A stretch of DNA of 64,000 bases from an uncultured Candidatus Micrarchaeota archaeon (GCA_963760615.1 CAVXDX010000008.1:1-64000); one strand, 5' to 3'. Numbered from the stretch's first letter, positions 33,266 through 57,831 are shown. Notes: generated by a model not told the origin, from the letters alone. Numbers and translations: made by a program.

Positions 33266-33313
33266 GGTAATAGTATTAATTCAGGGGGTATAAAAATTTA
33301 TGTAGACGATAGA

Positions 33314-33347
33314 GAGGGCGCAAGGCAAGAAAGAAGCTTGAGTCTGA
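33314..33347 (+). repeat. att-like repeat copy A (right arm plus core)
   Basis: GAGGGCGCAAGGCAAGAAAGAAGCTTGAGTCTGA, 30/34 identical to 36238..36271. Confidence 0.75.
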
Positions 33348-33378
33348 AGCCCCGAGTTGGTTTTGACTCATGCTTTAG

Positions 33379-34687
33379 CAGAAGCGAGTGAGAAACCCAC
33401 ACTCTTGAGAGGTGGGATGAAAGCGAATCTATAAGAGAGGATTCAGATGCCCTAATAACAACTTCACTGGAAAGTTACCCCTCCCAGAGGTTTATAAAGG
33501 GAAAAATAACTTAAAATAACACCTATGAGCGCCTATAAATTCAGGATATACCCATCGAAGAATCAGGAAGGGCAAATGCAGACGCATCTCTGGCTGGCAA
33601 AGAACCTCTGGAATGAGATGCTTGCATTCACCAAGGAGATTTACAACAACCATGGAAAATTCCCAACAAAGAGAACCTTAAGGGAAATGGTCAAACAATC
33701 CGGTCTATTCTCCCAAGTTGGCCAGGAGCTTGTAGACAGGTTGATTGATGCTCTTCATAGGAAAATAGAGATGAAGAAAAACGGGGAGAAAGGCGGCTTC
33801 CCGCGCTTCAAGTCTCTTGACAGGATGAAAAGCTTATGTTACCCGCAATCTGGTTTCTGGCTTGACAAGAAACTCAAAGTGACTCCTTTTGGCGAGATTG
33901 CAATAAAGAAGCACAGGAAGATAGCCGGAAAAATCAAGACTCTTACTCTGAAAAGAGAACCAACGGGAAAATGGTTTGCTGTTTTCTGTGCCGACACTCC
34001 TAAAGAAACTCCAAAAGAAAACAAGGGAGAGGCAGTTGGAATTGACTTGGGCTTGAAGACATTTGCAACCTTGTCAAATGGAATGAAAATAGAAAACCCA
34101 AGGCATTCCAAAAAATATGAGGAGAGACTTGCCTTTGTTCAAAGAAAGTTTTCAAAGAGGGAAAGAAGAAGCAACAACAGGAAGCGAGCAAAACAGAGAC
34201 TCGCAAAACTGCATGAAAAAATTTCAGATTGCAGGAGGAACTTCCTGCACAAGATTTCGACTGAATTAGTGAATTATTATGCCCTCCTTGTATTGGAGAA
34301 ACTTGCCTCACAGGAAATGGCTGAACAGAATTACGGAAAGCAGATAAGAGATGCGGGATGGAGTATGTTTGCAAACATGCTTGCATACAAGGCGGAAGGA
34401 GCTGGATGCAGGGTAGTGTTTGTAGACCCTGAAAATACTTCGAAGATGTGCAGCAGATGCGAAAACATCAGAAATGATTTGACTCTGCGGGACAGGGTGT
34501 ATACCTGTCCTGAATGTGGGTTATCAATAGACAGAGATTTAAATGCTGCACGCAATATACTCATAAGAGCTACCCCTGGGCAAGGGGGAAGTAACGCCTG
34601 CAATTCCTTGCAGAAGGAGAGAGATGTTGCATTGGCAACGTCTGTGAAGCAGGAAGTGCTCACCCTTTAGTGGTGGGAACATGTCAC
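33379..34687 (+). mobile_element. IS200/IS605-family (IS1341-type, tnpB-only) insertion sequence
   Basis: Subterminal hairpin left end after TTAG; tnpB; right end ...GGTGGGAACATGTCAC. No tnpA in the window. Confidence 0.88.
33525..34670 (+). CDS. tnpB: RNA-guided endonuclease TnpB
   Basis: AYKFRIYP HTH; RuvC-I GIDLG; RuvC-II VLEKL; Zn ribbon CSRC...CPEC; RuvC-III DRDLNAARNI, all intact. Confidence 0.96.
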   Translation: MSAYKFRIYPSKNQEGQMQTHLWLAKNLWNEMLAFTKEIYNNHGKFPTKRTLREMVKQSGLFSQVGQELVDRLIDALHRKIEMKKNGEKGGFPRFKSLDRMKSLCYPQSGFWLDKKLKVTPFGEIAIKKHRKIAGKIKTLTLKREPTGKWFAVFCADTPKETPKENKGEAVGIDLGLKTFATLSNGMKIENPRHSKKYEERLAFVQRKFSKRERRSNNRKRAKQRLAKLHEKISDCRRNFLHKISTELVNYYALLVLEKLASQEMAEQNYGKQIRDAGWSMFANMLAYKAEGAGCRVVFVDPENTSKMCSRCENIRNDLTLRDRVYTCPECGLSIDRDLNAARNILIRATPGQGGSNACNSLQKERDVALATSVKQEVLTL

Positions 34688-34705
34688 TTAATAAATTCCC
34701 CGCTC
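34565..34705 (+). ncRNA. Predicted TnpB omega/re-RNA with flanking guide (TTAATAAATTCCCCGCTC...)
   Basis: Established IS605 architecture: scaffold overlapping the tnpB 3' end through TCAC (34687), with the guide taken from the flank. The 5' boundary is approximate. Confidence 0.6.
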
Positions 34706-34791
34706 TTGGGTTTCCTTACTAACAAACTCTTACAATTGAATAATTTTATAAGCTATGCGCTTCAAAAGCAATATGAAGTGATGGTGATCTA

Positions 34792-34983
34792 ATGAAAGGA
34801 AAAGTAAAGATGTTTAACACCGCGCGTGGTTTTGGATTTATCACGGGCGAAGACGGCAAGGACGTGTACGTGAACGTCTCGGAGATTCAAGGCGGTGCCG
34901 TGCTCGCAGTCGGCGATGCTGTAGAGTACGATGTTGAATCAGGCGAACGCGGGCCGCGTGCAAAGAACGTAAAAAAAGTCTAA
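34792..34983 (+). CDS. csp: Cold-shock domain protein
   Basis: MKGKVKMFNTARGFGFI...DVYVNVSEI...GPRAKNV (RNP1/RNP2). Confidence 0.95.
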   Translation: MKGKVKMFNTARGFGFITGEDGKDVYVNVSEIQGGAVLAVGDAVEYDVESGERGPRAKNVKKV

Positions 34984-35064
34984 AAGCGTTTGCGAAACCG
35001 TAGAATGCCGCTTCTAGGATTCATCCTCCTAGCCTAGCGCAAAAACGTTAGAAAAATAGGATAT

Positions 35065-35093
35065 GAGGGTGCAAGGCAAGGATGAAACTTAAG
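35065..35093 (+). repeat. att-like repeat copy B
   Basis: GAGGGTGCAAGGCAAGGATGAAACTTAAG, 24/29 identical to copy C. Confidence 0.65.
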
Positions 35094-35203
35094 CATTGGT
35101 CCTTAGTGTTTTGGTTAAAAACTCTCATCCATAAAACAACTAGTAAGGATATACCTTTTCCAACTAAAGGGGTTAAAAACATTTCCATAGTAAATTCTAT
35201 CGG

Positions 35204-36138
35204 GTGTTGGATACTCTCTTGTATATCATTGTCGGTCTTGCAATCCTGGCGAAAGCGAGCGATTATGCTGTAAAATCCATTGTTAACATAGCAAGGCTCT
35301 CTCATTTCAGCGAGTTCGCGGCAAGTTTTGTAATTGTGGGCATAGCATCGGTAATGCCCGAATTCTTCGTTGCTGTGACCTCATCACTAAATAACGTTCC
35401 GCATTTCGGTCTTGGGTCCTGCTGGGCTCCAATGTCATTGACTTGACATTGGTAATCGCATTGGTGGTGCTCATTGCCGGCAGGATAAAGATAAACACAA
35501 AATTTTTGCACTGGGGGAACTGGTATGTGATAATAACTGCACTTCCAGTTTTGCTTTTGCTGGATGGCTCCCTCTCGCCTCTTGATGGGGTAATTTTGGT
35601 ATTCGTGTTTCTCTTTTATGTTACATTCATCCTCGCAAGAGGCAGGAGGATGCTTGGCGGCAGGAGTAAGGAGGATTTTGGGAAATTCCTAAAAGAATCC
35701 ATCGTAGCAGTAGTAAGTCTAGCCATCATTTTCTGGAGTGCAAACCTCGTAGTGACCAATTCAGTAGCACTCTCTGAAAAACTGTCTTTCCCCCTTGTCT
35801 TCACTGGGTTTTTTGTCGCCTTTGGAACGTGTTTCCCGGAGTTTGTATTCGCGCTAAAAGCCGCAAAAGAGAAGCACGGCGAGCTCGGCATCGGCGCGAT
35901 AATGGGCGATGTGATAGTTGACGCAACTTTTTCAATAGGTGTTGTTTCTCTGATAAGTCCCATAACTCCGCCGCTGATTATGACTGTACTGAGCGGTCTC
36001 TTCATGATAGTAGCCTCTCTGGTCGTACTGCACTTCATAAAAAATGATAAGGAGATAACGCGGAACGATGGGGTCCTCCTCCTCATCCTCTACCTTCTAT
36101 TCGGCACTGTGGAATTGTGGGTTAAGGCAGTTACTTGA
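35204..36138 (+). pseudogene. Na+/Ca2+ antiporter (CaCA family) with a single frameshift at ~35415
   Basis: Alpha-repeats GIASVMPEFFV and FGTCFPEFVF. Adding 1 nt at GGG|TC restores GLGVLLGSNVIDLTLV. Could be a sequencing error. Confidence 0.8.
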
Positions 36139-36163
36139 TATTACCCATCCAAAGCAATTAAGC

Positions 36164-36271
36164 TTGCTGCAGAATTGGACACTTTTGTTAGGGGATTGAC
36201 GAAGAAGGGGCAAGACTATAGAATGATACACTATGCAGGGGGTGCAAGGCAAGAATGATGCTTGAGTCTGA
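36164..36271 (+). repeat. att-like repeat copy C (left arm shared with D, right arm shared with A and B)
   Basis: 36164..36249 is 73/86 identical to 49791..49876, including the exact 27-mer ATTGACGAAGAAGGGGCAAGACTATAG. Confidence 0.85.
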
Positions 36272-36307
36272 GGTTAATATATATTTTTAACTGAGTATAG
36301 GCATATC

Positions 36308-37570
36308 ATGGCGAGAAAGCAGATAAAACTCAAGAGGACTCTCAACCTGCTCGATGCAGTGTCAATAGGACTAGGAGCGATTATTGGAGCAGGGATATAC
36401 GTTGTCGTGGGCATAGCCGCCGGGGCTGCAGGACCGGGAGTGATGCTCTCTGTCATTTTCGCTGGCATCATAGCTTTGTTCACTGCCCTTAGCTTCGCAG
36501 CGCTCAGCTCCAGAATAACGAAGGAGGGAGGGGCATACGAGTATGTGTACGAATTAATCTCACCTTCCTTGGGTTTTTTAACCGGCTGGTTTTGGGTTTT
36601 CGGGCAGATTGTTGCAGGAGCAGCCGTGAGCCTTGGGTTTGCGACATACATGGCGGTGTTAATTCCGCTGCCGGTGAAGTTTGTTGCAGCTGGTGGTTGC
36701 CTGCTTTTCATGCTTCTCAACCTGATTGGCGTGAAGCAGTCCAGCCTCGTGAATGATGCACTGGTTGCATCAAAGATACTTGTGCTATGCATCTTTGTGG
36801 CAGTTGGAGCTTCCTACATAAAATTCTCGAATTTCACTCCACTTATGCCTAATGGATTTTCAGGAGTGGTGAGCGGAGCTGCTCTGATATTCTTCGCCTT
36901 TCTCGGTTATGGTAGGATAACCACAATCTCTGAAGAGGTGAAAAACCCCGAAAAGGTGGTGCCGCTCTCAATCCTGCTCGCCCTTGGGATATCCAGCATT
37001 CTTTACCTTCTTGTGGGTTTCACTGCAGTTGGCATTGTTGGTTCCAATGCGCTTTCTTCCTCAGGCTCGCCCCTTGCCATTGCAATGGGGGCAACTGGAA
37101 ACGGACTGGCAGTGCTGGTTGTATCCATTGGTGGGATTCTGGCAACGGCGAGCGTGCTTCTCACAACAGTGCTCGGTGTTTCAAGGGTGTCATTCTCTAT
37201 GGCGAGGAATAAGCAGATTCCAGAATTCATAAATGCAATTCATCCAAAATTCATGACTCCTTACATCTCGATACTTCTTACGGGATTCCTGATGGCTGCG
37301 CTTGCCTTTTTTGGGGATTTGAAGCAGGTTGTCTCGCTTGCCAGCTTCGCCGTGATATCAACGCATGTGCTAGTCAACTATGCTGCATTTAAGGTGAGGG
37401 ACAGGTGCAGCTTCAAAATACCATTCTGCCCTGTTCCGCCTCTGCTCGGGATGGTAAGTTGCGCAGCCCTGACGCTCTCCTTACTGCCTGATGTGTGGGT
37501 GGTGGCACTGGTTGTGCTGCTTGCAGGAGTTGTCTTTTACTCAATATACAAACTCGCGGTTGTACGCTAG
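36308..37570 (+). CDS. APC-family amino acid permease
   Basis: GLGAIIGAGIY, FFAFLGY, EEVKNPEK, 12 TM segments. Confidence 0.93.
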   Translation: MARKQIKLKRTLNLLDAVSIGLGAIIGAGIYVVVGIAAGAAGPGVMLSVIFAGIIALFTALSFAALSSRITKEGGAYEYVYELISPSLGFLTGWFWVFGQIVAGAAVSLGFATYMAVLIPLPVKFVAAGGCLLFMLLNLIGVKQSSLVNDALVASKILVLCIFVAVGASYIKFSNFTPLMPNGFSGVVSGAALIFFAFLGYGRITTISEEVKNPEKVVPLSILLALGISSILYLLVGFTAVGIVGSNALSSSGSPLAIAMGATGNGLAVLVVSIGGILATASVLLTTVLGVSRVSFSMARNKQIPEFINAIHPKFMTPYISILLTGFLMAALAFFGDLKQVVSLASFAVISTHVLVNYAAFKVRDRCSFKIPFCPVPPLLGMVSCAALTLSLLPDVWVVALVVLLAGVVFYSIYKLAVVR

Positions 37571-37696
37571 GGGGAGGGTGTTGGAGTTTGGGTTTATAAA
37601 TCGCTTTTATAAAATTGTGCACCGAGTATTCAAAATTGCTCTCCGCGGAATTTCCTTTACTAAATATATTTAAACTTTAGGTTCACCTAAATCAGC

Positions 37697-38338
37697 ATGC
37701 AAAAAATCAGCCCAGAGATTGAGGAGTACCTTGAGACAATCTACAGAATAAAAGAGAAGGGCAAGGATGCGAAAACTACCGAGGTAGCCGAGGAGCTTGG
37801 AGTCTCCCCTCCAAGCGTTAGCGAGATGTTCAGGAAGATGGCGAAGGATGGACTAATAAGATACAACCGCTACAGGGGCGCATCGCTGACCAAAAAGGGG
37901 GAGGAGATTGGAGGAGGGATACTCCACAAGCACAGGCTTATTCAGAAATTTCTTATATTCCTAGGGGTGAAGAGGAAGGTTCATGACCAGGCGTGCGCTC
38001 TGGAACACGTGGTTTCGGATGAGGTTGAAAATGCGATGCAAGATACGTTACTGCACGGTCCCCATTTGAGGAAGGATGTTGTAAGGCTCAGCGAGATGAG
38101 AGAAGGAGAGGAGGGCAAGGTAGCCTTCGTAATGGGTGGGAGAAGTGCTTCGCAGAGGCTTGCGGACATGGGCTTGACTCCAGGAAGCGGGGTGAAGATG
38201 TTGCGTGCTTCCAGCTATGGCGGTCCTCTGAACCTGAGCATTTGCGGCTATAGCCTCGCTCTTGGAATAGGTGTAGCGTCCAAGGTTTTCGTCCATGTTC
38301 ACCATCAGGAACATCACAGAGTCAAGAGGTCTGAGTAA
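37697..38338 (+). CDS. DtxR/IdeR-family metal-dependent repressor with a C-terminal FeoA domain
   Basis: EEYLETIYRI...VSPPSVSEM...HRLIQKFL...ACALEH; FeoA RLADMGLTPG. Confidence 0.92.
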   Translation: MQKISPEIEEYLETIYRIKEKGKDAKTTEVAEELGVSPPSVSEMFRKMAKDGLIRYNRYRGASLTKKGEEIGGGILHKHRLIQKFLIFLGVKRKVHDQACALEHVVSDEVENAMQDTLLHGPHLRKDVVRLSEMREGEEGKVAFVMGGRSASQRLADMGLTPGSGVKMLRASSYGGPLNLSICGYSLALGIGVASKVFVHVHHQEHHRVKRSE

Positions 38339-40270
38339 ATGAAAAAGCTGAAAGTTGCACTAGCAGGTAACGCAAACGTAGGCAAATCGGTGATTTTCAA
38401 CGATCTCACAGGGCTTCACCAGCACATAGGGAACTGGCCAGGCAAGACAATTGAGAGGGCAGAGGGCACGCTGCGCTTCGGGAAATATGAGGTGGACGTG
38501 ATGGACCTGCCTGGAATATACTCGCTCTCAACCTTTTCCCAGGAGGAGGTGATATCGCGCGGGTACATAGCAAAGGAGAAACCCGATGTTGTTGTGAATG
38601 TGATTGATGCTTCCGTTCTTGAGAGAAACCTCTTTCTGACCCTCCAGCTGCTGGAGCTTGAAGCGCCTCTTGTGATAGCACTGAATATGGTAGACAGCGC
38701 TAAGAAAAAGGGCATAGTGGTAGATTCAAAGAAGCTTTCGAAGATTCTGGGCGTGCCAGTCGTGGAAACTATCGCACCAAGAGGAATTGGCATAAAAGAG
38801 CTGATGGAGGCTGTTGTGGATGTTGCAGAAAATCCCAGGAAGCAGTTCAAGCCATCCTACAGCAAGCCTATAGAAGATGCAATCCGGAAGATGATGGTGC
38901 CTATTGAAAAATGCGATGTGGTGTACCCCCCTCGGTGGATGGCGATGAAGCTTCTTGAGTGCGATGCGGAGGTGGAGGAGTTAACCAGAAGAAAGTGCCC
39001 CTCCGTGCTTCCGCTCGCCAAAAAACTCAGGCAGGAACTGGAAGGCTCGAAGAAGGAGATATGCTCAATGGCAATAACTTCCGAGAAATACCTCATTTCA
39101 AAACGCATAATAGATGAAACCCAGAGAATAAAGACCCCTGAAAAACCATCCCTTGAGAGCAGGCTGGACGGGGTGCTTCTGCACAGGATATGGGGTTATG
39201 TATTTCTTATAGCAGTTGGAGTCGTGGTATTCGGATTGGTTTTCAGCATGGGGGGCTTGCTCTCCTCAGCCCTCTCTGATGTGCTGGTAGGATTAAAACT
39301 GCCTGTCAGAGAAGCTTTTGGAGGAGGACTTCTTGCGGATATCGTATGGAACGGCATATTTGAAGGCGTTATCGCAGGGATTACGATAGCCATACCGTAT
39401 ATCCTGCCATTCTATATACTGCTCTCTATTCTTGAGAGCTCAGGCTACCTTGCAAGGATGGCTTTTCTCATGGACAATGTGATGCACCAGATTGGGCTTC
39501 ACGGGAAAGCATTCATCCCGCTTATACTCGGATACGGGTGCAATGTCCCAGCGTGCCTCGGCTGCAGGGTTATGGAGGACGAGAGGGAGAGGATTACGGC
39601 AGGGTTTGTCGTTACTTTGGTACCTTGTTCCGCGAGAACCGTTGTCATACTTGGGCTGGTTGGAACCTTTCTGGGTTTGAAATGGGCTCTGGCGATATAC
39701 GTGTTCAATCTCCTTGTCATATTCCTTCTTGGAAGGCTGGCATTCAAGATTCTGCCAGGCGAGCCAATGGGCCTGATAATGGAGATGCCGCCCTACAGGA
39801 TGCCCCAAATGGACTCTATCGCGAAGGAGAGTTGGGGGAGGATTAGCGATTTCGTTCTCATGGCATTCCCGGTGATAATCATCTCAACGTTCGCAATAGA
39901 GCTGTTCTATCTCGCCGGACTCGTGCAGGTGATTTCAAACCTGCTGAGCCCAATAACTGTTGGCTGGCTAGGGCTCCCCGCGGTTATTGGCATAACACTC
40001 ATATTCGGAATTCTCAGAAAGGAGCTAACACTCATAATGCTGGCGAGCGCATTTGGAACGCAGAATTTTGGAGCAGTTCTCAGCCCAGTTCAGATGGTCG
40101 TTTTCACATTGGTGACACTTTTCTACATTCCATGTGCCGCCACAATAAGTGCCCTTGTTAAAGAGTTTGGGTGGAGAAAAGCGCTTTACATAACAGTATT
40201 CGAAATAGGGTTCGCCTTGCTGCTGGGAGGGATAGCATTTAGGCTGCTGAGCATTTCTGGAGTTCTCTAA
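38339..40270 (+). CDS. feoB: Ferrous iron transporter FeoB
   Basis: GNANVGKS, GNWPGKT, DLPGIYSL, ALNMVD, GYGCNVPA, PCSAR. Confidence 0.97.
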   Translation: MKKLKVALAGNANVGKSVIFNDLTGLHQHIGNWPGKTIERAEGTLRFGKYEVDVMDLPGIYSLSTFSQEEVISRGYIAKEKPDVVVNVIDASVLERNLFLTLQLLELEAPLVIALNMVDSAKKKGIVVDSKKLSKILGVPVVETIAPRGIGIKELMEAVVDVAENPRKQFKPSYSKPIEDAIRKMMVPIEKCDVVYPPRWMAMKLLECDAEVEELTRRKCPSVLPLAKKLRQELEGSKKEICSMAITSEKYLISKRIIDETQRIKTPEKPSLESRLDGVLLHRIWGYVFLIAVGVVVFGLVFSMGGLLSSALSDVLVGLKLPVREAFGGGLLADIVWNGIFEGVIAGITIAIPYILPFYILLSILESSGYLARMAFLMDNVMHQIGLHGKAFIPLILGYGCNVPACLGCRVMEDERERITAGFVVTLVPCSARTVVILGLVGTFLGLKWALAIYVFNLLVIFLLGRLAFKILPGEPMGLIMEMPPYRMPQMDSIAKESWGRISDFVLMAFPVIIISTFAIELFYLAGLVQVISNLLSPITVGWLGLPAVIGITLIFGILRKELTLIMLASAFGTQNFGAVLSPVQMVVFTLVTLFYIPCAATISALVKEFGWRKALYITVFEIGFALLLGGIAFRLLSISGVL

Positions 40271-40409
40271 ACTGCGAATCCTCTATTTGCTGAGAAGCTC
40301 CATCGACTTACCGTAGCATCCCAAGACTCCCCCGCCAACTTTTGTTATCAGTACTTCATTCCCCATCGCTGCATCCGTACCTCTCTCCAACTTTCTTAAC
40401 CCTCAGCAT

Positions 40410-40631
40410 TCAGTCATGCTCCTTGAAAGCTGCATCCTGAACAGGGTCGTTCTTCCTCAGCCATTCCATCAGCATCGCCGTATGCTCCTTCTCCTCATCC
40501 ATATTGTGCTGCAGAACTTTCTTCAGTTCAGGATCCGTTGCCGGCCCTATCCTCGACTGGTATTTGTTTATCGCGTCAAGCTCTTCAATCATCGACTGCC
40601 TCGCCATCCCCAAATCCTCCGGTTTTCCCAT
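40410..40631 (-). CDS. Encapsulated-ferritin-like (EncFtn) small ferritin-family protein
   Basis: ARQSMIEELDAINKYQSR...HNMDEEKEHTAMLMEWLRKNDP. Confidence 0.85.
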   Translation of the reverse strand: MGKPEDLGMARQSMIEELDAINKYQSRIGPATDPELKKVLQHNMDEEKEHTAMLMEWLRKNDPVQDAAFKEHD

Positions 40632-40635
40632 CCAA

Positions 40636-41499
40636 TCACCTCCAAACAATTCTCTCTATCTCCCCAACCATCTTTCTGAAAGCATACGCAGCTTTTCCCT
40701 TCCCAAGCACAGGAGGCACTCCATCCGCAAGCAGACGTGGCACCTCCTCGTCATATGGTATTCTTGCAACGAGCTTCCTCCCAAATTTCCTGAGAGCCTT
40801 CCTCTCGTTCCTCTTGGATATGCCCTCCTTGTTCATAACAACGCAGTATCGTATCCTGAAATGCCTCACGACCTGCAGAGCCCTCTCAAGGTTGGCTGCA
40901 CCCGCAGGTGTTGGCTCGAGAACTCCTACCGCATACTCGCATCCAGCAACAGCTGCTATCACCGGGCATCCTATCCCCGCAGGTGCATCTACAAGCACAA
41001 GCTCAGCACCCCTCCTCCCAGCTATCTCATCCCCAAGTCTCCTCGCCTCATGCACGATTCTCCCGCTCCCCGACTCCCCTGGGAGAAGCCTTCCGTAAAC
41101 CAGCAGGAAGCTTTCAGTCTCTCTCACAACCATCTCTCCGCTCAGCTTTGGAGCAAGCCTGATAGCACCGTTGGGGCATGCAAGAACACACGCGCCGCAT
41201 CCCTCACAGCGAAGCTCATCAACTTCAATCCTCTCTCCAGTCGCCAGTGCTCCGAACTGGCATGCTTTCAAGCACTCCCCGCACAGCTTGCATTTCTTCC
41301 TGTCAACAACCGCAATTTTTGATGCATATATCTCCTCCTTTCTGACATCCCTTCCGGGGAAAATAATATGCTGGTTCGGGCAGTCAGCATCCCCGTCGAC
41401 CAGCACCAGCTTCCTTCTCTTTGACAGCTCCACTGCTAGCGATGAGACTACACAGGACTTGCCAGTTCCGCCCTTTCCGCTCAGAACGACGATTCTCAT
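40636..41499 (-). CDS. MinD-superfamily P-loop ATPase with inserted 2x[4Fe-4S] ferredoxin
   Basis: SGKGGTGKS, DADCPN, CKLCGEC...CEGCGAC, PAGIGCP. Confidence 0.92.
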   Translation of the reverse strand: MRIVVLSGKGGTGKSCVVSSLAVELSKRRKLVLVDGDADCPNQHIIFPGRDVRKEEIYASKIAVVDRKKCKLCGECLKACQFGALATGERIEVDELRCEGCGACVLACPNGAIRLAPKLSGEMVVRETESFLLVYGRLLPGESGSGRIVHEARRLGDEIAGRRGAELVLVDAPAGIGCPVIAAVAGCEYAVGVLEPTPAGAANLERALQVVRHFRIRYCVVMNKEGISKRNERKALRKFGRKLVARIPYDEEVPRLLADGVPPVLGKGKAAYAFRKMVGEIERIVWR

Positions 41500-42326: not shown

Positions 42327-42343
42327 AAGAGAAACACATCCAC

Positions 42344-42694
42344 TCAGTGCTTGCAGACGTTTTCATCTGCCTTTAACTCACCCTTGAGATATTTCTCAAC
42401 AGCATCCTTAATCCTGCCCTGGACCCCGAAGATGATTTTTATTCCCAGGGATTCGAACATCGCAAGTGCTCTGCTGCCCATCCCTCCGGTTATCATCAAA
42501 TCCACATGGAGGGAGGAGATGAACTTCGGAACTGCGCCTTGGACGTGGTTTTGGAAATAGGGGTTCTCCACTCTCTCCACCTTTATTATTTCCTCACCCT
42601 TGCTTTCCACGATGACGAACTCAGGACACCTGCCAAAATGTTCAGAAACCTCCCCATCAATTCCTCCTCCTGCTGATGATACGGCTATTCTCAT
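42344..42694 (-). CDS. NifB/NifX (FeMo-cofactor-binding domain) family protein
   Basis: VSEHFGRCPEF...LMITGGMGSRA. Confidence 0.9.
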   Translation of the reverse strand: MRIAVSSAGGGIDGEVSEHFGRCPEFVIVESKGEEIIKVERVENPYFQNHVQGAVPKFISSLHVDLMITGGMGSRALAMFESLGIKIIFGVQGRIKDAVEKYLKGELKADENVCKH

Positions 42695-43095
42695 AGCATC
42701 CTCCTACCTCTCCTTCCGAAACCCATTCCAAAATGGCCGGACACATTCGGTGCTGTTACGCTGGGAAGTTTGCCCTCAAGAAGTTTTGTCACAGCATCCC
42801 CAACTTTTCCTGCGGAGGAATAGACACTTACGCCTGCTTGCATGAGCACAGCCATGGCATTGGGGCCGCAGTTGCCTGTTATAAGGCTATTTGCTCCGCT
42901 GTTAATAACTGCTTGCGCAGCAGCTATTCCCGCACCGCCGCCAGCCATCGCTCCGGGGTTGGGTATCACTTCTGTTTTTAGTATCCTCTTCTCCTTTTCG
43001 TCAACCTCAAGAAGAGTGAAAGTGGGGCATCTGCCAAACATCGGGCATATCAAATCGCCTACTCCGCCCTTGGACGTAGATATAAGTATTTTCAT
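42691..43095 (-). CDS. Second NifB/NifX family protein with a Gly/Arg-rich tail
   Basis: CPMFGRCPTF...GAGIAAAQ...ITGNCGPNA...GMGFGRRGRR. Confidence 0.9.
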   Translation of the reverse strand: MKILISTSKGGVGDLICPMFGRCPTFTLLEVDEKEKRILKTEVIPNPGAMAGGGAGIAAAQAVINSGANSLITGNCGPNAMAVLMQAGVSVYSSAGKVGDAVTKLLEGKLPSVTAPNVSGHFGMGFGRRGRRML

Positions 43096-43105
43096 GCGCT
43101 CACTT

Positions 43106-43393
43106 TCACTGCTGAGGCTTCTCAAGCTCCGCTATTCTCTTCTTTATTTCCTCAAGCTCAATCCTCAGTTCCTCGGAGTAGGACTTAAGCTCTTGGAGCT
43201 CCTGTTCCTTGCTCGGTTGCGGAAGCGTGGTGCTCTGGGTGCTTGGAAAACCACTTGAATACGTCATTCTCCAGCTAAACCCACGGCCGAATCCCCTCCT
43301 CCCACCAGGGCCAAAATCTGAGCCGAAGCCTCTTCTCCAGCATCTCCAATTTCCTCCGCCCCACCAGGGACCTGTTCCATCTCCCCACGGCAT
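43106..43393 (-). CDS. DUF5320-family Gly/Arg-rich protein with a C-terminal coiled coil
   Basis: MPWGDGTGP...GRRGFGRG...ELQELKSYSEELRIELEEIKKRIAEL. Confidence 0.85.
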   Translation of the reverse strand: MPWGDGTGPWWGGGNWRCWRRGFGSDFGPGGRRGFGRGFSWRMTYSSGFPSTQSTTLPQPSKEQELQELKSYSEELRIELEEIKKRIAELEKPQQ

Positions 43394-43479
43394 TCTAATC
43401 ACCTCTTTTTTTTATAAGTTCCAAATAACCTAAAAGACAATGTTGCATGGTAGCTTTTTCAGTACTTGTAATCTATCCT

Positions 43480-43590
43480 TCACCAGCCTCTTCCTTTGCC
43501 CGTTCTTTTGGTCTCAGAGCATCCGCCTCGCCCTCTGTTAGCACGTCTGCCCGTTCCCGAACCATCTCTCTTTGGTTTACCATACGGCAT
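43480..43590 (-). CDS. 36-aa Gly/Arg-rich microprotein (absent from the ORF track)
   Basis: MPYGKPKRDGSGTGRRANRGRGGCSETKRTGKGRGW*; SD GAGGTG upstream; co-oriented inside the operon. Confidence 0.65.
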   Translation of the reverse strand: MPYGKPKRDGSGTGRRANRGRGGCSETKRTGKGRGW

Positions 43591-43600
43591 CTATTCCACC

Positions 43601-43906
43601 TCATTTTTGCTTTTTTATCAGGGAGTAATTCCCCCCATGAATCTTGATTGCCTTGCCCTTTGTGAGCGCCTCGGCAACCTTTCTTCTCGCTGATTTGAGG
43701 AGCCTGTGCAGCGTCGGTTGCGATATCTTAATCCTTTTCGCCACTTGCACCTGCTCCAATCCCTCGTAATCTTTCAGCCTGAGCGCCTCAAACTCCTCGA
43801 CGCTCAGCTCCACCTCCTTCAGCTCAATGAGCGGTATTGCTCGGGGCTTGAAGTAGGTCACTCCGGGCTCGGCGTAAACCATTTTGCATTTCTTCGGTCT
43901 TACCAT
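43601..43906 (-). CDS. DUF134 family DNA-binding protein
   Basis: MVRPKKCK...YFKP...LSVEEFEALRLKDYEGLEQ..VAKRI.ISQPTLHRLL..ARRKVAEAL. Confidence 0.93.
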   Translation of the reverse strand: MVRPKKCKMVYAEPGVTYFKPRAIPLIELKEVELSVEEFEALRLKDYEGLEQVQVAKRIKISQPTLHRLLKSARRKVAEALTKGKAIKIHGGNYSLIKKQK

Positions 43907-43981
43907 AATGAATATATATGCGTAACACATATTTATAAATCTTTCTGCATATATATTCATAACTGTCCTAGGTGGCTTGAC

Positions 43982-45076
43982 ATGAGAAAAGCATTATCCG
44001 CATTTTTGTTCTCATTTCTATTCTCAGGCATCTGCTTATCCTCGGGAATAAATGTAACCGTCTACTATGGAGCAGGCTGTCCTCACTGCGCTGCCACGAT
44101 AGCCCTCATAAGAAATTACGAGAATGTGTACAACCTCAGCATAGAGGAGAAAGAAGTTTACAGCAATACGAGCAACAACAATGAGCTTATGGAGCTCTAC
44201 TCAACTTTTGGGATAAACCCAGCGAGCGATGAAGCAGGAGTTCCAACTATTTTCATTCCTCCTAGAACTATGGTAATTGGTGAAATGTCGCTTGAGAGAT
44301 GGGGGGAGATCCTTTCCAATTGTAGTATGGGAACATGCCCCGAGGGAGCGTACAATTACAAAGGATTGATAAAAGGAGATTCAGCTCAGAAACTCACAAT
44401 CCCGGTACTCGTAGGGGCTGCATTGGTGGACTCCATAAACCCATGCACAATTGCGATTATGGTTATGCTTCTCGGTATGATAATGCTGTCCAAGGGAAAA
44501 CAAGAGGCGCTTCTGGCTGGCTTGACCTTCTCATTTACAATATATGTAATGTATCTCCTGATGGGTTTGGGGATATTTCATGTAATAGCATCGTCAGGCC
44601 TCACGAATCTTTTCTTCATCATAGTTACCATTGCCGCACTCCTGCTTTCTGCAATGGAGGTTAAGGCCTACTTCTCTTATAAGCCGGGCTTTGGCGCCAT
44701 TGAAATGCCAATGTTCCTCAGGCCATACGCAAAGAAAGCCACATCTAGCGCAACCTCAATCCCAGGAGTGGTAATCGCGGCAGTATTATGCTCTCTGTTC
44801 CTTCTCCCCTGCTCCTCGGGTCCGTATCTGATGGTGCTGGGGATGCTTGCCAAATCAGCGACCGCCGAAACTTTGAGCTATCTGTTGATCTACAACGTAA
44901 TTTTCATACTGCCAATGCTAATCATGACAGTTGCCCTCTACCTAGGAAAGACCACTGCTGAAGCGATGGGTGAGATGAAGGAGAGGTATATCAAAGAGAT
45001 CCATCTGATCTCAGGGATTATAATGTTCCTCCTCTTCCTTCTGATGTTGAGTGAGATATTCCATTCCTTATTGTAG
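43982..45076 (+). CDS. Thioredoxin/glutaredoxin (CPHC) fused to a CcdA/DsbD-like TM domain
   Basis: Signal peptide; GCPHC; DSINPC; LPCSSGPY. Confidence 0.85.
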   Translation: MRKALSAFLFSFLFSGICLSSGINVTVYYGAGCPHCAATIALIRNYENVYNLSIEEKEVYSNTSNNNELMELYSTFGINPASDEAGVPTIFIPPRTMVIGEMSLERWGEILSNCSMGTCPEGAYNYKGLIKGDSAQKLTIPVLVGAALVDSINPCTIAIMVMLLGMIMLSKGKQEALLAGLTFSFTIYVMYLLMGLGIFHVIASSGLTNLFFIIVTIAALLLSAMEVKAYFSYKPGFGAIEMPMFLRPYAKKATSSATSIPGVVIAAVLCSLFLLPCSSGPYLMVLGMLAKSATAETLSYLLIYNVIFILPMLIMTVALYLGKTTAEAMGEMKERYIKEIHLISGIIMFLLFLLMLSEIFHSLL

Positions 45077-45095
45077 AATTATCACGGGTGTAACT

Positions 45096-45899
45096 ATGGA
45101 TAATCAATCAGTTGATGAAGAACGAAAGGAGATAGACAGCAGGATGCAGCATATAAAGCATAAGCTTGCGGTGATGAGCGGAAAGGGTGGGGTTGGAAAG
45201 AGCATGGTGACTGCCCTTCTTGCTTCAACTTTGCGTAGGCGGGGGAATAAAGTTGGAGTGATTGATGCAGATATAACCGGGGCAAGCATTCCGAAGATAT
45301 TTGGGGTTAGCGAGAAGTTATATAGCTTGCCGGTTGGTACAATCCCGGCCAAAACCAAATCCGGGATCAAGATCATCTCAACCCATCTGCTACTCGAGAG
45401 GGAGGATCAGCCGATTATATGGAGAGGTCCGCTTATAGCCAGGATCATAAGGGAGTTTCTTGCAGGTGTTGAATGGGGCGCGCTCGATTATCTGCTGGTG
45501 GATCTGCCTCCTGGAACTAGTGACGCACCACTCACAGTTATCCAATCAATACCACTTGATGGAGTCGTGTTTGTAACATCACCTCAGAAGTTGTCTATGA
45601 TGGTGGTAAAAAAATCTATGAATATGGTAAAAAAGATGGGAGTTCCTCTTCTGGGCATGATAGAAAACATGAGCTATTACAAATGCCCTCACTGCGGGAA
45701 AATCTCATATATTTTTGGTAAAGGAACAACAGCTAAATCCGCAGATGAAAATGGAATCCCTTTTCTGGGAAAAATTTCTCTTGATCCTTCTCTCTCCTAT
45801 CTCTCTGATTCTGGTAGGATGGAGGAGTATGGGAGTGAACATGCGGATAGGATAGTGGATAAGTTGCTCAGAACTTTAGAACATAGTGGAAGAGGGTGA
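45096..45899 (+). CDS. mrp: Mrp/NBP35 Fe-S carrier ATPase
   Basis: SGKGGVGKS, IIWRGP, DLPPGTSD, ENMS..CPHC. Confidence 0.95.
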   Translation: MDNQSVDEERKEIDSRMQHIKHKLAVMSGKGGVGKSMVTALLASTLRRRGNKVGVIDADITGASIPKIFGVSEKLYSLPVGTIPAKTKSGIKIISTHLLLEREDQPIIWRGPLIARIIREFLAGVEWGALDYLLVDLPPGTSDAPLTVIQSIPLDGVVFVTSPQKLSMMVVKKSMNMVKKMGVPLLGMIENMSYYKCPHCGKISYIFGKGTTAKSADENGIPFLGKISLDPSLSYLSDSGRMEEYGSEHADRIVDKLLRTLEHSGRG

Positions 45900-45905
45900 T
45901 GAGGT

Positions 45906-46460
45906 ATGGAAAATATGGTACCAAAAAAATTATTCTTGACTAAGGGTGTGGGAAAAGACGTGGATCCTTTATCTTCTTTTGAGCGCGCCTTGAAAGACGC
46001 GGGAATCGAGAAATGCAATCTGGTGAACGTCTCGAGCATTCTGCCTCCCAACTGCGAGATAATTCCAAGAGAGAAGGGAGTTGAAATGCTTAAGCCTGGG
46101 CAGATGACCTTCGTGGTGATGAGCAGGAATTCCTCAAATGAGCCGAGCAGACTAATAGCAGCATCAATAGGCGTGGCAATTCCTAGTGATAGGTCCATGT
46201 ACGGCTACCTCAGCGAGTATCATTCATTTGGGGAAACTGATGAGAAGGCAGAGGAGAAGGCGGAGGATTTGGCTGCGTGCATGCTTGCATCAACTCTTGG
46301 CATAGACTTTGATATGAACCAGAGCTGGGATGAGAAAGAGCAGCTCTTCAAGCTCAGCGGCAAGATAGTCAAAACAAGAAATGTTGCCCAGTCTGCAATT
46401 GTTGACAAGGATGGGATGTGGACAACTGTCCTTGCTGCCGCAGTCCTGCTTCTTGATTAG
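45906..46460 (+). CDS. pdaD: Pyruvoyl-dependent arginine decarboxylase
   Basis: [25 protein letters not shown] (Ser-Ser cleavage site), YGYLSE. Confidence 0.92.
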
Positions 46461-46513
46461 ATTACTACACTTTCACCTTTTGATACGGACGGCCAACTGT
46501 GATCTTCCTCATG

Positions 46514-46756
46514 AGCTGCGCAGTGCTTTATAAACAATTTTGCGCAGCTTATTCTTTGATTTTATAAAGTTCTGATTGCTGAAACATACAATATTGCGCA
46601 GCTTATACCTCCAGTAGATTATTGATGAACTGCTCAATGCTTTATAAATGACTTTGAGCAGCCGATTCATTTATTTTCTATTGTTGTGCTTCTTACATCC
46701 AATATTTTTGAGCAGCTCAAGCCTCAGGTATATTTGTTGATGCAAAGCTGCTCAAT
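46514..46756. repeat. ~114-bp tandem repeat (about 2.3 copies), each unit with an inverted repeat flanking TTTATAAA
   Basis: Unit 1 GCTGCGCA-N18-TGCGCAGC (46515-46548); unit 2 CTGCTCA-N18-TGAGCAG (46630-46661); third sites at 46595 and 46709. Confidence 0.75.
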
Positions 46757-47087
46757 CTGCGCTTAAAAACAGAGAATTATCTACCGAGAGTTATCATAAA
46801 AGAGAGGCTGAAGTGCAGGTACTCAAAATATGGAACGGTAGTTACCCGCGCCACTCTGAAGAAGACTTTGGAATCTATTTTCAGATAATCTCAGCACAAA
46901 TAGATAACATATATATTATATGGAGCGCTGTAGGAGGCAGTGAAACGGCTATTTTCCGATGATTTCCCGAATGAGCGCAAACTTTGCGCAAAGAGGAATT
47001 AGGGGCAAGAAAACTGGATTGGGAATGCTTGAAAGAGGCGAATTTTCCACTTAATTCTACGCTTAAATTTTTGCGCAGATTCAATTT

Positions 47088-47639
47088 TCAGGCCAATTCC
47101 CTGAATTTTTTCTTGTCCGCCTTGATTTGCGAACGCAAGGCAAATCTTCCATAAGGGGTCTGCTTTGTCTTGGCGCCAGCTATGTTTCCCCGGTGAAATA
47201 TTATCTCATTTCCGAAAAAGGAGAGGATCCTTGCGATTTTCCTTGCACGCCAAGTCCCCCTTGCAATGTTCTTCTCAGTGCGCCGTTTTAGGCTTATTTT
47301 TCTTGAGATTTTTGGATTTACTATGTGCACGCTGCCGGAAGGCTGCCAATTCAGGCCAAGCGCTTCCTCTGCTGTCCTGCAGCTGAAATAGAACTCATTG
47401 CTTTCCAGGAAAAGCGCGACAGCCTGGAACAGGACCTTGAGCGGCTTTTCGATGAAAGAGCCTTTCCTTTCCTCCTCCAGAGGGACGTAGTAAATTCCCT
47501 TAAAAGGTGTTGGAAAGAGCTTGAGGGACGAGCACAGCGCGAGAATCTCCTTCTTGCTCAGCCCTTCTGAGCGAAGCTGCGCAAAACTGACTGCCTGCTT
47601 AGGAAGCATCAGAAACCACCTCTTGGAAAGCTGCTGCAT
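47088..47639 (-). CDS. Putative AbiEi-like partner/antitoxin
   Basis: N-terminal short HTH-like segment, then PFKGIYYVP...YFSCRTAEEALGL; coupled to an AbiEii-like gene. Confidence 0.65.
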   Translation of the reverse strand: MQQLSKRWFLMLPKQAVSFAQLRSEGLSKKEILALCSSLKLFPTPFKGIYYVPLEEERKGSFIEKPLKVLFQAVALFLESNEFYFSCRTAEEALGLNWQPSGSVHIVNPKISRKISLKRRTEKNIARGTWRARKIARILSFFGNEIIFHRGNIAGAKTKQTPYGRFALRSQIKADKKKFRELA

Positions 47640-48186
47640 CCTCCTGGTTTAGCGCCATAGAATCTATATCCTCTATCCTTCTTGGAAGACCGCTTTTCAC
47701 GATCAGCTTTTTCACCATAGCAGAACTGCCTTTCCCTTTCAGAATACAGAATATGTCAAACAGGTCCCTTGCCTCCTTTCTGTCATTATAGGCAGAAAGC
47801 TTCATTTGGAGAATGTCGTCAAGCGAGGCAACCTTTATTTTCGCGCCGCCGAAAACATGCTCCTGAATCTTTCGGATTTTCCTGTCTGGTTCAAAAACTT
47901 CAACCTTTATGCTTGTGTCCTCGAACTGCACCACGAGCTGATTCTTGAAAGCGCCGGGCATGGTGCGGTAGCCCTTCTTGGAAAGGCAGCCTTTGAGCTC
48001 TTCCTTGAGCTTTGTCTCGTCTCCGGCAATTGGAACGAAGTCCAAATCCACGCTTACGCGGTGCTTCAGGTAGAAAAGGGCAAGCGCTGTCCCGCCAACA
48101 AGGATTAATTTTCCCTGTGCGCATTCGGCAACATCCGGGAGTATCTCCAGTACCTTCTTGTATTTCCTGTTGAATGACTCATTCAT
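47599..48186 (-). CDS. AbiEii/AbiGii-family nucleotidyltransferase toxin
   Basis: LVGGTALALFYLKHRVSVDLDF...KL.A...R.EARDLFDI. Confidence 0.9.
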   Translation of the reverse strand: MNESFNRKYKKVLEILPDVAECAQGKLILVGGTALALFYLKHRVSVDLDFVPIAGDETKLKEELKGCLSKKGYRTMPGAFKNQLVVQFEDTSIKVEVFEPDRKIRKIQEHVFGGAKIKVASLDDILQMKLSAYNDRKEARDLFDIFCILKGKGSSAMVKKLIVKSGLPRRIEDIDSMALNQEDAAAFQEVVSDAS

Positions 48187-48291
48187 GGTTGTTTATTGAT
48201 GCCAAAACTATATAAACCTTGTTATTACTAGATTAAATTAAGTTTAATCTAGATAAACTTTAGTCGACTGTAAGAAATTCTAGAGTTTTCC

Positions 48292-48470
48292 GCTCAAGCC
48301 TCCGGTATATTTGTTGATTTCGAGCTGCTCAGAGTGGTAACTGCTTTCTGCGCCTGTTTCTACGCTTAATTTTTTATAGACACTTTCATGCCGAATCAAG
48401 CACTTCTATCTTGAGTTTCTGCGCCTAAAATGCGCCTGTTTCGGAGTTCTGGCAATCAATTGCGCCTATT
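48292..48470. repeat. Copy of 46715..46754 followed by four TGCGCCT direct repeats downstream of the integrase
   Basis: GCTCAAGCCTC.GGTATATTTGTTGAT....AGCTGCTCA (35/40 identical); TGCGCCT at 48349, 48420, 48431 and 48461. Confidence 0.7.
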
Positions 48471-48552
48471 TTACAAATTTCAATTTCTACGAATATTATT
48501 CTTTAATTTGCATTCTTTTTGCACTTAAAAGTAGAGAATCGTTTTCAGAGAG

Positions 48553-49758
48553 TTATTTTATGCCATTCATCAGGTTTTTATCTAACCCCATAGCAACGAC
48601 TTTCTTGGCTAGGAATTCCTTAACCTCCGGGTCCTGGAACAGGGCATTCATCAGTTCGTTTGCCTGCCCGTTGTAATCAACCAAAAGCTTCCTTTCGTCT
48701 AATGGATTGCCACATCTGCCGCAAAAGGACTGGCCGGGGGAATTCCTCTCCTTGCAGCGATGACAAATCTTAATATCAAGCTTGGGCTCTTTTTCCACAG
48801 GTTGCTCCTTCAAGGAGTACATCTGCAGGAGCGTGGAATCAACGTCCCTGCCAGACAGGTGCACGTAGATTGCAGCCATGTCGCTGCACTGGGTCCAGCC
48901 AAAGTATTCCTTCATTTGAGCCTCTGTAAGCTTGCTAGCCAAGGCTGTTGCACGAGAATGACGGAAAAGATGCGGATAAATGCGCTTTTTGACCCCGCTT
49001 GCCTTCCGGGTTCGGCGTAACATGGCAAGAACTGAAGGGTAGGAAACAGGGATTGGTTCGTATCTGCCTAGCCTGGAAGGCCAGAGAGGGGCGTTCGGGT
49101 TGTCCTTGTCCGGGTGCTCCTGAAGCCACTGGCCCAAAACCTGAACGCTTGCAATAACTCTTACTCTCCGGCTGCCTGTTTTACCATTAACAAGCAAAAC
49201 CCCGCCGTAATTGTCAAACTGGACGTTTTTCAGCTTAAGGTAGAGCAATTCGCCAATTCTGCAGCCGGATTCGTATAGAACCAAAATCAGAGCCTTATCT
49301 CGTGGATTTGTGGTAGCGTTAGCAAGCTTTTCAACTTCCTCAACCGTTAGCAGTTCCTCAGGGAGTTTGTGCTTTTCATTCCTCAATTTAGGCTTGAGCC
49401 ACTTTATAACTTCTGGGAATTCTTCATCTCCTCCCTTGAGCCATTTGTAGAATGTTTTGAGGACAATCTTGAAATCGTACACTGTGTATTCTGAGTAATC
49501 TTTTGAATCCATAGAGGAAACGAGCTCAATCAGATCCTCCTTTGTCGCTTCAGAAAAATCCTTCCCGAGCCATTCGGCAAGGTAGCGGACGCACCACATA
49601 CATTTGACCACGCGGAGCTTGCTTGAACCCTTGGCTAGCCTGATATGGGCGAAGTCCTCAATCTGCTTTTTGGTTTTTTCCGGGAGGACAGAGGCTCGCA
49701 GTCGTTGGAGCTCCTTTTCAAAGTTAGTCTGGTGCTTGTATATTGTGAATTCGTTCAT
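48553..49758 (-). CDS. Tyrosine recombinase/integrase with a C-terminal Zn ribbon
   Basis: LYESGCRIGE (R), KTG, HLFRH, FGW, AAIYVH (Y) catalytic set intact; CHRC...CGRC. Confidence 0.95.
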   Translation of the reverse strand: MNEFTIYKHQTNFEKELQRLRASVLPEKTKKQIEDFAHIRLAKGSSKLRVVKCMWCVRYLAEWLGKDFSEATKEDLIELVSSMDSKDYSEYTVYDFKIVLKTFYKWLKGGDEEFPEVIKWLKPKLRNEKHKLPEELLTVEEVEKLANATTNPRDKALILVLYESGCRIGELLYLKLKNVQFDNYGGVLLVNGKTGSRRVRVIASVQVLGQWLQEHPDKDNPNAPLWPSRLGRYEPIPVSYPSVLAMLRRTRKASGVKKRIYPHLFRHSRATALASKLTEAQMKEYFGWTQCSDMAAIYVHLSGRDVDSTLLQMYSLKEQPVEKEPKLDIKICHRCKERNSPGQSFCGRCGNPLDERKLLVDYNGQANELMNALFQDPEVKEFLAKKVVAMGLDKNLMNGIK

Positions 49759-49790
49759 GCCTCTGTCCTACTCGAAGATCTATTTATAGA

Positions 49791-49876
49791 TTGCTGCAGA
49801 ATCAAGCACTTTTGTCAGGCTATTGACGAAGAAGGGGCAAGACTATAGTATTATGCAAGATGCAGGGGGTGTAAGG
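49791..49876 (+). repeat. att-like repeat copy D immediately upstream of the integrase promoter
   Basis: 73/86 identical to 36164..36249; diverges after GGGGGTGTAAGG. Confidence 0.85.
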
Positions 49877-50046
49877 GGAGACCACGCCTCAGAGCAGAAC
49901 CCTCTTTGAAATGCCCTTCTACGCACTATACTGTAGCATTAGACGTTTATAAGCACTGCCCCGGTTTCTCCTCGGAGACGAGGGCGATTTCGTCCATTGC
50001 CTGACGTTAATAAACGAAAGAACAGAGGGCGTTTCCTAGGAAATGC

Positions 50047-50211
50047 TTATTTTTTCTGGGCAGGTTCTTCATAAATTAGATTATATTTTGTCAAAATTTC
50101 TCGTCCATTTTTTTCACTAATTTCTTTAAGGTCTTGCTTTATTGCATCATCAAGTACTATATCGCAGTAAGAGATTATTGTTCTTGGGATACCCTTGGTA
50201 ACTTCGTATAA
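50047..50211 (-). pseudogene. C-terminal relic of an AAA+ ATPase (lid region)
   Basis: LYEVTKGIPRTIISYCDIVLDDA resembles the ExeA/AAA_22 lid motif; no upstream open frame. Confidence 0.35.
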
Positions 50212-50357
50212 AAATTAGTGCACAACTTGTTAACAAACATTGGGCTGATTGTATTTCAACTCCGTAGATATTACTAACATTGATATTATTTAAATCTATC
50301 CTCGATAAATAGTTATGGAGGTATATGACCAGGCGGGAGTTTGAGTAAGGTGGATAT

Positions 50358-51500: not shown

Positions 51501-51518
51501 CCATTACAATGTCGACTA

Positions 51519-52808: not shown

Positions 52809-52845
52809 ATCCTTCCCTTCATATGATAAAACATTATATCCGCCT

Positions 52846-53154: not shown

Positions 53155-53155
53155 G

Positions 53156-57813: not shown

Positions 57814-57831
57814 GGTATAATATATCATTCT

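Follow-up and report, generated by a model that had tools for sequence, protein, structure and literature searches.

We report that four related direct repeats in the genome of a micrarchaeon are very probably the junction scars of a tandem array of mobile elements, built up at the 3′ end of a single tRNA-Leu(CAG) gene; we give this reading a probability of roughly 0.88. The window, that is, the whole 64,000-nt stretch of DNA that was analyzed, is positions 1-64000 of contig C8 in the 1.14-Mb assembly of Candidatus (Ca.) Fermentimicrarchaeum (Micrarchaeota, DPANN) referred to here as G000, and the repeats within it are named A to D. A first-pass annotation of the window had taken them for attachment (att)-like sites dividing an integron-like island, in which one integrase at a non-tRNA hotspot had stacked small cassettes and a large module. 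The repeats are indeed present where it had placed them, with the identities it gave, and they are att-derived junctions of a tyrosine-integrase system. The nature of the target, the right-hand limit of the island and the comparison with integrons have had to be revised.

In the model that we favor, each element would carry an attP site consisting of a P arm, the 11-nt core TGCAGGGGGTG and a P′ arm, adjoining the gene of a lambda-paradigm tyrosine integrase. Recombination in the core would rebuild the tRNA end from element DNA and would leave a core copy behind at the end of the element that faces away from the tRNA. Re-use of the rebuilt tRNA would then stack elements, with the oldest lying farthest from the tRNA. 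Strand exchange presumably takes place within the 11-nt core. The four sites of the window are composed as follows.

Site A, 33303-33347, plus strand: flank from the promoter of a pyrroloquinoline quinone (PQQ)-propeller gene, degenerate core (7/11 identical to TGCAGGGGGTG) and P′1 arm (26/28 identical to the arm of C); leftmost junction, attL type.
Site B, 35054-35098, plus strand: eroded junction with a degenerate core (6/11) and a P′1 arm 20/28 identical to that of C.
Site C, 36161-36271, plus strand: P1 arm ending just short of the integrase promoter, exact core at 36234-36244, P′1 arm.
Site D, 49788-49881, plus strand: P1 arm (integrase promoter side), exact core at 49861-49871, P′2 arm.

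A repeat search of the window returns C and D as a 94-nt pair (36161-36254 and 49788-49881, 83% identical) and A, B and C as a 45-nt family at 33303, 35054 and 36227, with 82% identity between A and C and 60% between A and B. Recomputed by script, the left arms of C and D, compared from 36164 and 49791, are identical at 73 of 86 positions and include an exact 27-mer at 36195; the right arm of C is shared by A and B to the extent listed above. That all four sites have one core in common holds to the letter for C and D, which contain the exact 11-mer, and only in degenerate form for A and B. The degenerate pattern GGGYGYAAGGSRAG matches the window four times, at precisely these sites, against 0.32 matches expected from shuffled window sequence. 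Nor is the repeat scattered through the genome: the 115-nt C site strongly matches C, D, A and B alone in the 1.14-Mb assembly. Site D does lie just upstream of the integrase TATA element, since it starts at a TATA-like box 22-31 nt 5′ of the integrase ATG.

The core is the end of a tRNA-Leu(CAG) gene

An exact match to the 11-mer TGCAGGGGGTG is found at C, at D and at the 3′ end of tRNA-Leu(CAG), always on the same strand, and at no fourth place in the genome. It forms the last 11 nt of this tRNA gene (C8:74476-74562, minus strand), located 10.5 kb past the end of the window, and comprises the discriminator base, the 3′ acceptor strand and three nucleotides of the T stem; read on the plus strand, the tRNA end shows TGCAGGGGGTG followed by the T arm. 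The gene is called by ARAGORN and by Rfam (54 bits) and is the sole tRNA-Leu(CAG) in the assembly. The hotspot is therefore a tRNA gene, one that lay outside the window from which the non-tRNA reading was made.

The limits of the island follow from comparison with G002, the complete genome of the congeneric Ca. Fermentimicrarchaeum limneticum Sv326 (CP058998.1), which served as synteny reference. Synteny between G000 and G002 ends at A and resumes at C8:74477 with a 91-nt stretch, 98% identical, that is tRNA-Leu(CAG) itself, so the island measures about 41 kb (33.3-74.5 kb) rather than 16.5 kb. It does not end at D but runs on to the tRNA at C8:74476. D, formerly read as attR-like, is the junction of one element bearing the integrase Int1 (C to D, 13.6 kb) with a second element of 24.6 kb bearing the integrase Int2, and the true attR is at the tRNA. 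The reading of A as attL-like was correct, as it joins the chromosome flank to core and P′1, and so was that of C, an attP-like P1-core-P′1 junction between a relic and the Int1 element. Hybrid junctions of this kind (P1-core-P′1 at C, P1-core-P′2 at D) are those of two or more elements in the same orientation that share a core. Orthologous leftmost sites in three genus mates (G002, G003 and G004) and in three metagenome contigs have the exact core after the same PQQ-gene promoter.

Aligning all sites on the core shows what adjoins the tRNA in each relative. In G002, G003 (contig C17) and G004 (contig C23), a P1 arm of about 100 nt that includes the integrase promoter is fused directly to tRNA-Leu, which is a canonical attR. 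The same fusion is found in G006, a genome of a different genus, where the integrase has been deleted down to its mutated start codon. In G000, P1 at D is joined to P′2, and what adjoins the tRNA is another arm, P2, with Int2 about 95 nt from the tRNA. This combination is the outcome expected when a P2-core-P′2 circle recombines with a P1-core-tRNA junction, which points to a later arrival of the Int2 element than of the Int1 element; the Int2 element is absent from G002, G003 and G004, where P1 meets the tRNA. A P′2-like arm is also found in G003 and G004.

Between the same two flanks, the relatives hold 4-14 kb of different cargo, and modules have been gained and lost with breakpoints at the core. 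The interval from the PQQ-propeller gene to tRNA-Leu is occupied as follows.

G004: about 4.2 kb; two sites, small genes, tandem repeats and Int1.
G006: 5.6 kb; AbiE pair, no integrase.
G002: 13.9 kb; five sites, plus the tRNA.
G000: 41 kb; relics, an insertion sequence (IS), the Int1 element and the Int2 element.

One extra module of about 1 kb in G002 lies between the leftmost site and the A-type site; G000 is without it, and its sequence is joined there at the core. A metagenome scan with the core plus the start of P′1 as query gave 19 matches. Four of these are chance matches in unrelated coding DNA rich in guanine and cytosine (GC), and the other 15 are genuine junctions, falling into the classes flank-core-P′, full P1-core-P′, P3-core-P′ (a third arm type) and csp-core-P′, where csp is a cold-shock protein gene. 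One module start is identical in three different left contexts (G004 and metagenome contigs L138, L140 and L148 in this comparison). On G003 contigs C30, C17 and C41, the integrase next to the csp relic is found on the P′ side, with an inward direction of reading; relative to G000, G003 has its AbiE genes inverted.

Several observations weigh against a tandem array at the tRNA. No empty site, with the PQQ promoter joined to tRNA-Leu, was found in six genomes, including G006 from the second genus, or in the metagenome contigs. Circular or excised forms did not turn up either: P1-core-P′1 and P2-core-P′2 had no exact match in two scans of viral contigs, and terminal overlap was present in none of the metagenome contigs scanned. 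An identity of 11 nt is short for a tRNA-targeting element. Junction B of G000 is without a P arm; if it arose by deletion, the end point must have lain near the core, which would not be expected of simple random deletion. Finally, all genomes compared are metagenome-assembled genomes, in which repeats could mislead assembly, and in G003 the tRNA-Leu(CAG) junction exists in two alternative contigs, bearing the P1 arm and the P3 arm, respectively, which suggests strain heterogeneity or misassembly at the hotspot.

Integrases and the probable order of integration

Three paralogous integrase genes were found in G000.

Int1, 48553-49758, minus strand: intact tyrosine integrase of 401 amino acids (Pfam Phage_integrase, 74 bits).
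Int2, C8:73177-74382, minus strand: 56% identical to Int1, with the same domain layout.
Int3, C14:74315-75493: third integrase paralog, at the tRNA-distal end of a second array at tRNA-Glu(CTC).

The catalytic residues of Int1 (R167, H263-x-x-R266 and Y298) are intact and align in register with the archaeal XerA structures 4a8e and 5hxy. Its ortholog in G002, 97% identical, lies beside tRNA-Leu. After the catalytic tyrosine, Int1, Int2 and Int3 share a zinc ribbon of the form CxxC-N10-CxxC together with a conserved helical tail of about 50 amino acids; in Int1 this C-terminal part of about 100 amino acids is encoded at 48553-48760. The core lies 102 nt upstream of the Int1 ATG, outside the open reading frame (ORF), and by this architecture (lambda-paradigm, intact after integration) the integrases are archaeal type II. 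Two other assignments were considered and ruled out: a suicidal, SSV-type (type I) integrase, given that Int1 and Int2 are intact and the core is upstream of the ATG, and a XerA chromosome-dimer resolvase, given a score of 102 bits against the 220 cutoff of NF040815 and the presence of three paralogs, each by att repeats. The proposal that one integrase built the island does not survive either, since Int1 and Int2 differ and integrases and arms of three types or more share the site.

The array in G000 may have formed in four steps, whose order we infer from the junctions. Ancient elements would have integrated first, leaving only a csp relic (A to B) and a Na+/Ca2+-exchanger relic (B to C). 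The 13.6-kb Int1 element, with its iron-uptake and Fe-S genes, would have followed (C to D), and the 24.6-kb conjugative-plasmid-like Int2 element would then have entered between D and the tRNA. In a fourth step, a TnpB IS would have landed in the csp relic.

Association with tRNA genes extends to the integrase family as a whole. In a survey of one genome per species, 149 relatives were found and 80 loci were kept, nearly all from Micrarchaeota, 70 of them with enough upstream sequence. In 28/70 loci, the 300 nt upstream of the integrase gene contain a T-loop motif on the same strand, compared with 0.7 expected, and in 13 of the 70 a tRNA was called on the same strand with its end 74-163 nt upstream of the integrase ATG (tRNA-Leu in nine cases, with four anticodons). 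These two counts together indicate that the family is generally tRNA-associated.

The second array of G000, at tRNA-Glu(CTC) (C14:55248-55323), spans C14:55248-80923. Six exact copies of the last 11 nt of this tRNA, CGGTCGGAGCA, lie there on one strand (55312-80913), and the rest of the genome has none. Between them are a 20.3-kb element with Int3 and four modules of 1.05-1.8 kb, which hold one or two genes apiece and show mosaic arm types; one module encodes a Fic/DOC protein and the others unknowns. In G004 (contig C20, reverse strand), csp lies at tRNA-Leu(CAA) instead of tRNA-Leu(CAG); the segment that holds it is 3.3 kb long, has no integrase and is bordered by a P′2-like arm and by an exact repeat of 11 nt from the 3′ end of that tRNA (TGCAGGGGGAG). 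A genome-wide check of tRNA 3′ 11-mers, which is sensitive to ARAGORN end calls, added only the weak candidates tRNA-Asn and tRNA-Leu(TAG).

Probable decay of the modules and rival readings

The gene content that the first-pass annotation had given for the modules is correct: the products identified are TnpB, Csp, a Na/Ca exchanger, a permease, DtxR/FeoB, Fe-S ATPases, PdaD, AbiEii and a tyrosine integrase. The features to the left of C are the following.

33379-34687, plus strand: TnpB-only IS200/IS605-type IS, with tnpB at 33525-34670 (Pfam OrfB_IS605, Cas12f1-like_TNB).
34792-34983, plus strand: csp, cold-shock protein gene (Pfam CSD), the only gene of relic module A-B.
35204-36138, plus strand: Na+/Ca2+ exchanger gene, two ORFs each matching Pfam Na_Ca_ex, the only gene of relic module B-C.

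The TnpB IS had been counted as module cargo. It is a later, independent insertion into the csp module, unrelated to the att system: G002 has its precise empty site at 609280/609281, and its family, with four diverged copies in G000, is multicopy in all genus mates. The A-csp-B block is common to G002 (95% identical), G003 and G001, and the core of B is degenerate in G002 and G003 as it is in G000, so the csp relic must be older than these species. At the B position, the metagenome relatives L140 and L143 still have roughly 20 nt of P arm next to an exact core. A 1-nt frameshift at about 35420-35445, just before a conserved LGSNVIDL motif, interrupts the exchanger gene, which is either a pseudogene or the product of an assembly error in a short G run (homopolymer); five genus mates gave no DNA match to it.

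Both modules are probably decay products of integrase-bearing elements. Directly after its B site, G002 has the first 27 codons of an Int1-type gene with promoter and P arm, and a 3.3-kb module on metagenome contig L138 includes a piece of an integrase (residues 190-345). The tandem repeats that usually lie beyond the integrase stop codon abut a shortened P arm on L139, which implies that the integrase was lost there. P-arm lengths at the junctions range from about 86 nt (C) through 53 (G002), 42 (G003) and 20 nt (csp junctions of L140 and L143) to 0 (B in G000). Such integrase stubs and unequal truncations of the P arm argue for decay rather than for uniform cassettes. The idea of serial stacking thus stands in that the locus grew by serial integration; its small modules, with their stubs, unequal P arms and degenerate cores, look like decayed elements and not like cassettes.

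One may ask whether these small att-flanked modules are still mobilized, in cis with a neighbor or in trans by an integrase, like the cis-mobilizable elements (CIMEs) of bacteria, in which case the array would be a slow site of gene exchange. The perfect 11-nt cores and mosaic arms of the four small tRNA-Glu modules speak for this, as do the module start found identical in three left contexts and the G004 csp in its integrase-less module with exact 11-nt repeat. Excision of neighbors between direct cores, however, explains the differing contexts without any movement of the small module; the cores of A and B are degenerate in G000, both sites being probably inert; and the scans of viral and metagenome contigs gave no circular form. 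We consider continued mobilization unlikely. A narrower version, in which modules of one or two genes that lack an integrase but retain intact cores (the four at tRNA-Glu, the G004 csp and the three-context module) would still be exchanged in trans by resident integrases, seems to us more doubtful again. If it were true, tRNA ends in reduced DPANN genomes would be integron-like gene-capture arrays that shuffle small accessory genes.

The integron-like platform first proposed for the locus, in which a single integrase residing at a hotspot other than a tRNA gene would take up a large module and one-gene cassettes devoid of integrase by way of sites borne by the cassettes, accounts for the modules that hold one gene and no integrase, for a junction (C) with both arms and for the small module that follows different left neighbors. 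Like an integron, the locus combines a tyrosine recombinase with a row of short modules between related direct sites. The target, however, is a tRNA gene end, and no fewer than three types of integrase and arm use it. Nor is Int1 resident: it lies beside the tRNA in G002, G003 and G004 but 24.6 kb from it in G000, having moved within its own mobile unit and with its own P arm. The integrase lacks an IntI signature, scoring 48.4 bits against TIGR02249 (cutoff 265) and 26 against PRK15417 (cutoff 435), and there are no attC-like hairpins, as DNA folds of A to D on both strands show no significant structure (z from -1.43 to +0.48 relative to shuffles). The modules have their own promoters, with cargo genes on both strands, and the integrase remnants and unequal P-arm truncations are signs of decay. 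We therefore hold this reading to be very improbable.

That the repeats resemble one another by chance, or that they are intergenic elements with a regulatory or structural role (promoter, terminator, small RNA), in either case unrelated to recombination, has next to nothing in its favor beyond the facts that all four sites are intergenic and near gene starts and that D overlaps the integrase promoter, since the core is a tRNA end otherwise absent from the genome, synteny breaks exactly at the sites, neither a significant fold nor an Rfam match was found in the region, and four pattern matches stand against the 0.32 expected.

Known systems and the cargo of the elements

Tandem accretion at tRNA hotspots is already well known in bacteria and archaea; what is new here is the host lineage and the integrase family. 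In bacteria, tandem accretion and integrase-less derivatives (CIMEs) at tRNA 3′ ends have been described for ICESt1-related elements and for islands at Streptococcus tRNA-Lys genes (PMC5704250). The array at tRNA-Leu(CAG) resembles these systems in its integration into a tRNA end, in decay to an att-flanked remnant without integrase, in the entry of a new element into the attR that holds the tRNA end, and in the sharing of one site by distantly related integrases. It differs from them in its archaeal host, archaeal-type cargo (Orc1/Cdc6), zinc-ribbon integrase and 11-nt core; cis-mobilization, known for bacterial CIMEs, is no more than a possibility for the relics described here.

In archaea, arrays formed by re-use of one site and the loss of integrases after integration have been reported (PMC6563490, PMC8371274), and type II (pNOB8 or lambda-paradigm) integrases are associated with "gene capture" at tRNA genes and with tandem elements in Thermococcales, Methanococcales and Thaumarchaeota (PMC8371274, PMC6563490). 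An intact integrase gene, att sites outside the ORF, tRNA targets, site re-use, integrase loss and, apparently, one conjugative-plasmid-like element with a putative VirB4-type ATPase are features that the present locus has in common with them. The Micrarchaeota lineage, the zinc-ribbon tail and the R...HxxR...Y signature set it apart: the consensus quoted for pNOB8-type and SSV-type integrases is YxxR and KxxR, respectively (PMC8371274), and the signature found here is that of Xer and lambda-type enzymes. That review contains no mention of Micrarchaeota or of a zinc-containing integrase, and a literature search found no publication on this locus.

DPANN archaea have very small genomes. Stacked foreign DNA at tRNA-Leu(CAG) (about 41 kb) and tRNA-Glu(CTC) (about 26 kb) makes up close to 6% of the 1.14-Mb genome of G000, and its cargo comprises defense systems, a putative conjugation-type module, an extra gene for arginine decarboxylase and a block of iron-uptake and Fe-S genes that was not found in genus mates. 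This gives Micrarchaeota a concrete, testable route of gene gain and defines a widespread family of zinc-ribbon-tailed integrases together with its 11-nt target. The mechanism is classical and involves no new principle; the value lies in the cataloguing and in an experimental handle, for example a tool for site-specific integration in uncultured archaea of this kind.

The cargo of the Int1 element (GC content 47.6%), encoded on both strands, is as follows.

36272-48552: amino-acid permease, DtxR-like regulator with a FeoA domain, FeoB, two MinD/Fer4 ATPases, two NifX-like proteins (Pfam).
Within 36272-48552: DUF5320 protein, 456-amino-acid membrane/thioredoxin-like protein, Mrp/NBP35, second pdaD, tandem repeats, AbiE pair.
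47088-48186: AbiE pair, within the Int1 element.

The iron gene block recurs at 87-98% protein identity on a sediment metagenome contig (L139), beside similar junctions. The gene for pyruvoyl arginine decarboxylase, pdaD, is present twice in G000, in the island (45906-46460) and on the chromosome (C8:178432-178983); the two proteins are 88% identical, and the island copy is slightly nearer to the G006 ortholog (90%). We considered whether the C-D segment might be a relocated piece of chromosome, as pdaD is a core gene in relatives, and rejected this, because G000 keeps its chromosomal pdaD and FeoB was not found in three genus mates.

Near the 3′ end of the integrase gene lie 114-bp tandem repeats (46511-46734), which are conserved in G004 (C32:1154-1511) and found beside the truncated P arm on L139; they could be replication-origin iterons or arm-type binding sites for the integrase. 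The AbiE pair appears to behave as a movable sub-module. Direct repeats of 40 nt (88% identical) and 37 nt (78% identical) flank it, in regions 46715-46794 and 48292-48556. In G004, which is without the pair, nothing separates the tandem repeats from the 3′ flank of the integrase gene. At 84-98% protein identity, the pair is found beside tRNA-Leu without an integrase in G006 and beside a different integrase in G003.

The Int2 element, from D to its end at the tRNA (C8:74476), has a GC content of 42.3%, compared with 46.9% for the genome.

49882-64000 (left 14 kb): DUF559-like nuclease, beta-CASP hydrolase, DNA methylase, Shedu, Orc1/Cdc6, VirB4-like ATPase, PrgI/TrsD-like membrane protein.
Beyond the window, to C8:74476: pilin-like gene, second methylase, CAP-domain protein, Int2.

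The DNA methylase and the Shedu protein are encoded in a gene block at 53.4-57.8 kb. Orc1/Cdc6 scores above its NCBIfam cutoff; the VirB4-like ATPase reaches 289 bits with the CD1110 model, below the cutoff of 325, and the matches to PrgI, TrsD and a type IV secretion system pilin are weak. With this set of genes, the Int2 element appears to resemble an integrated conjugative plasmid. A noncoding segment of about 100-138 nt at 50207-50344 is 77-90% identical to single places in G001, G003, G004 and G005, and the match in G004 (C45) lies about 2 kb from another integrase gene.

The Rfam scan of the window matched nothing in the repeat region; its only matches, both far away, were a tRNA-Gln and a group II intron, the RNA domains of the latter lying at 2144-2740 (RF01999, 116 bits; RF00029, 58 bits).

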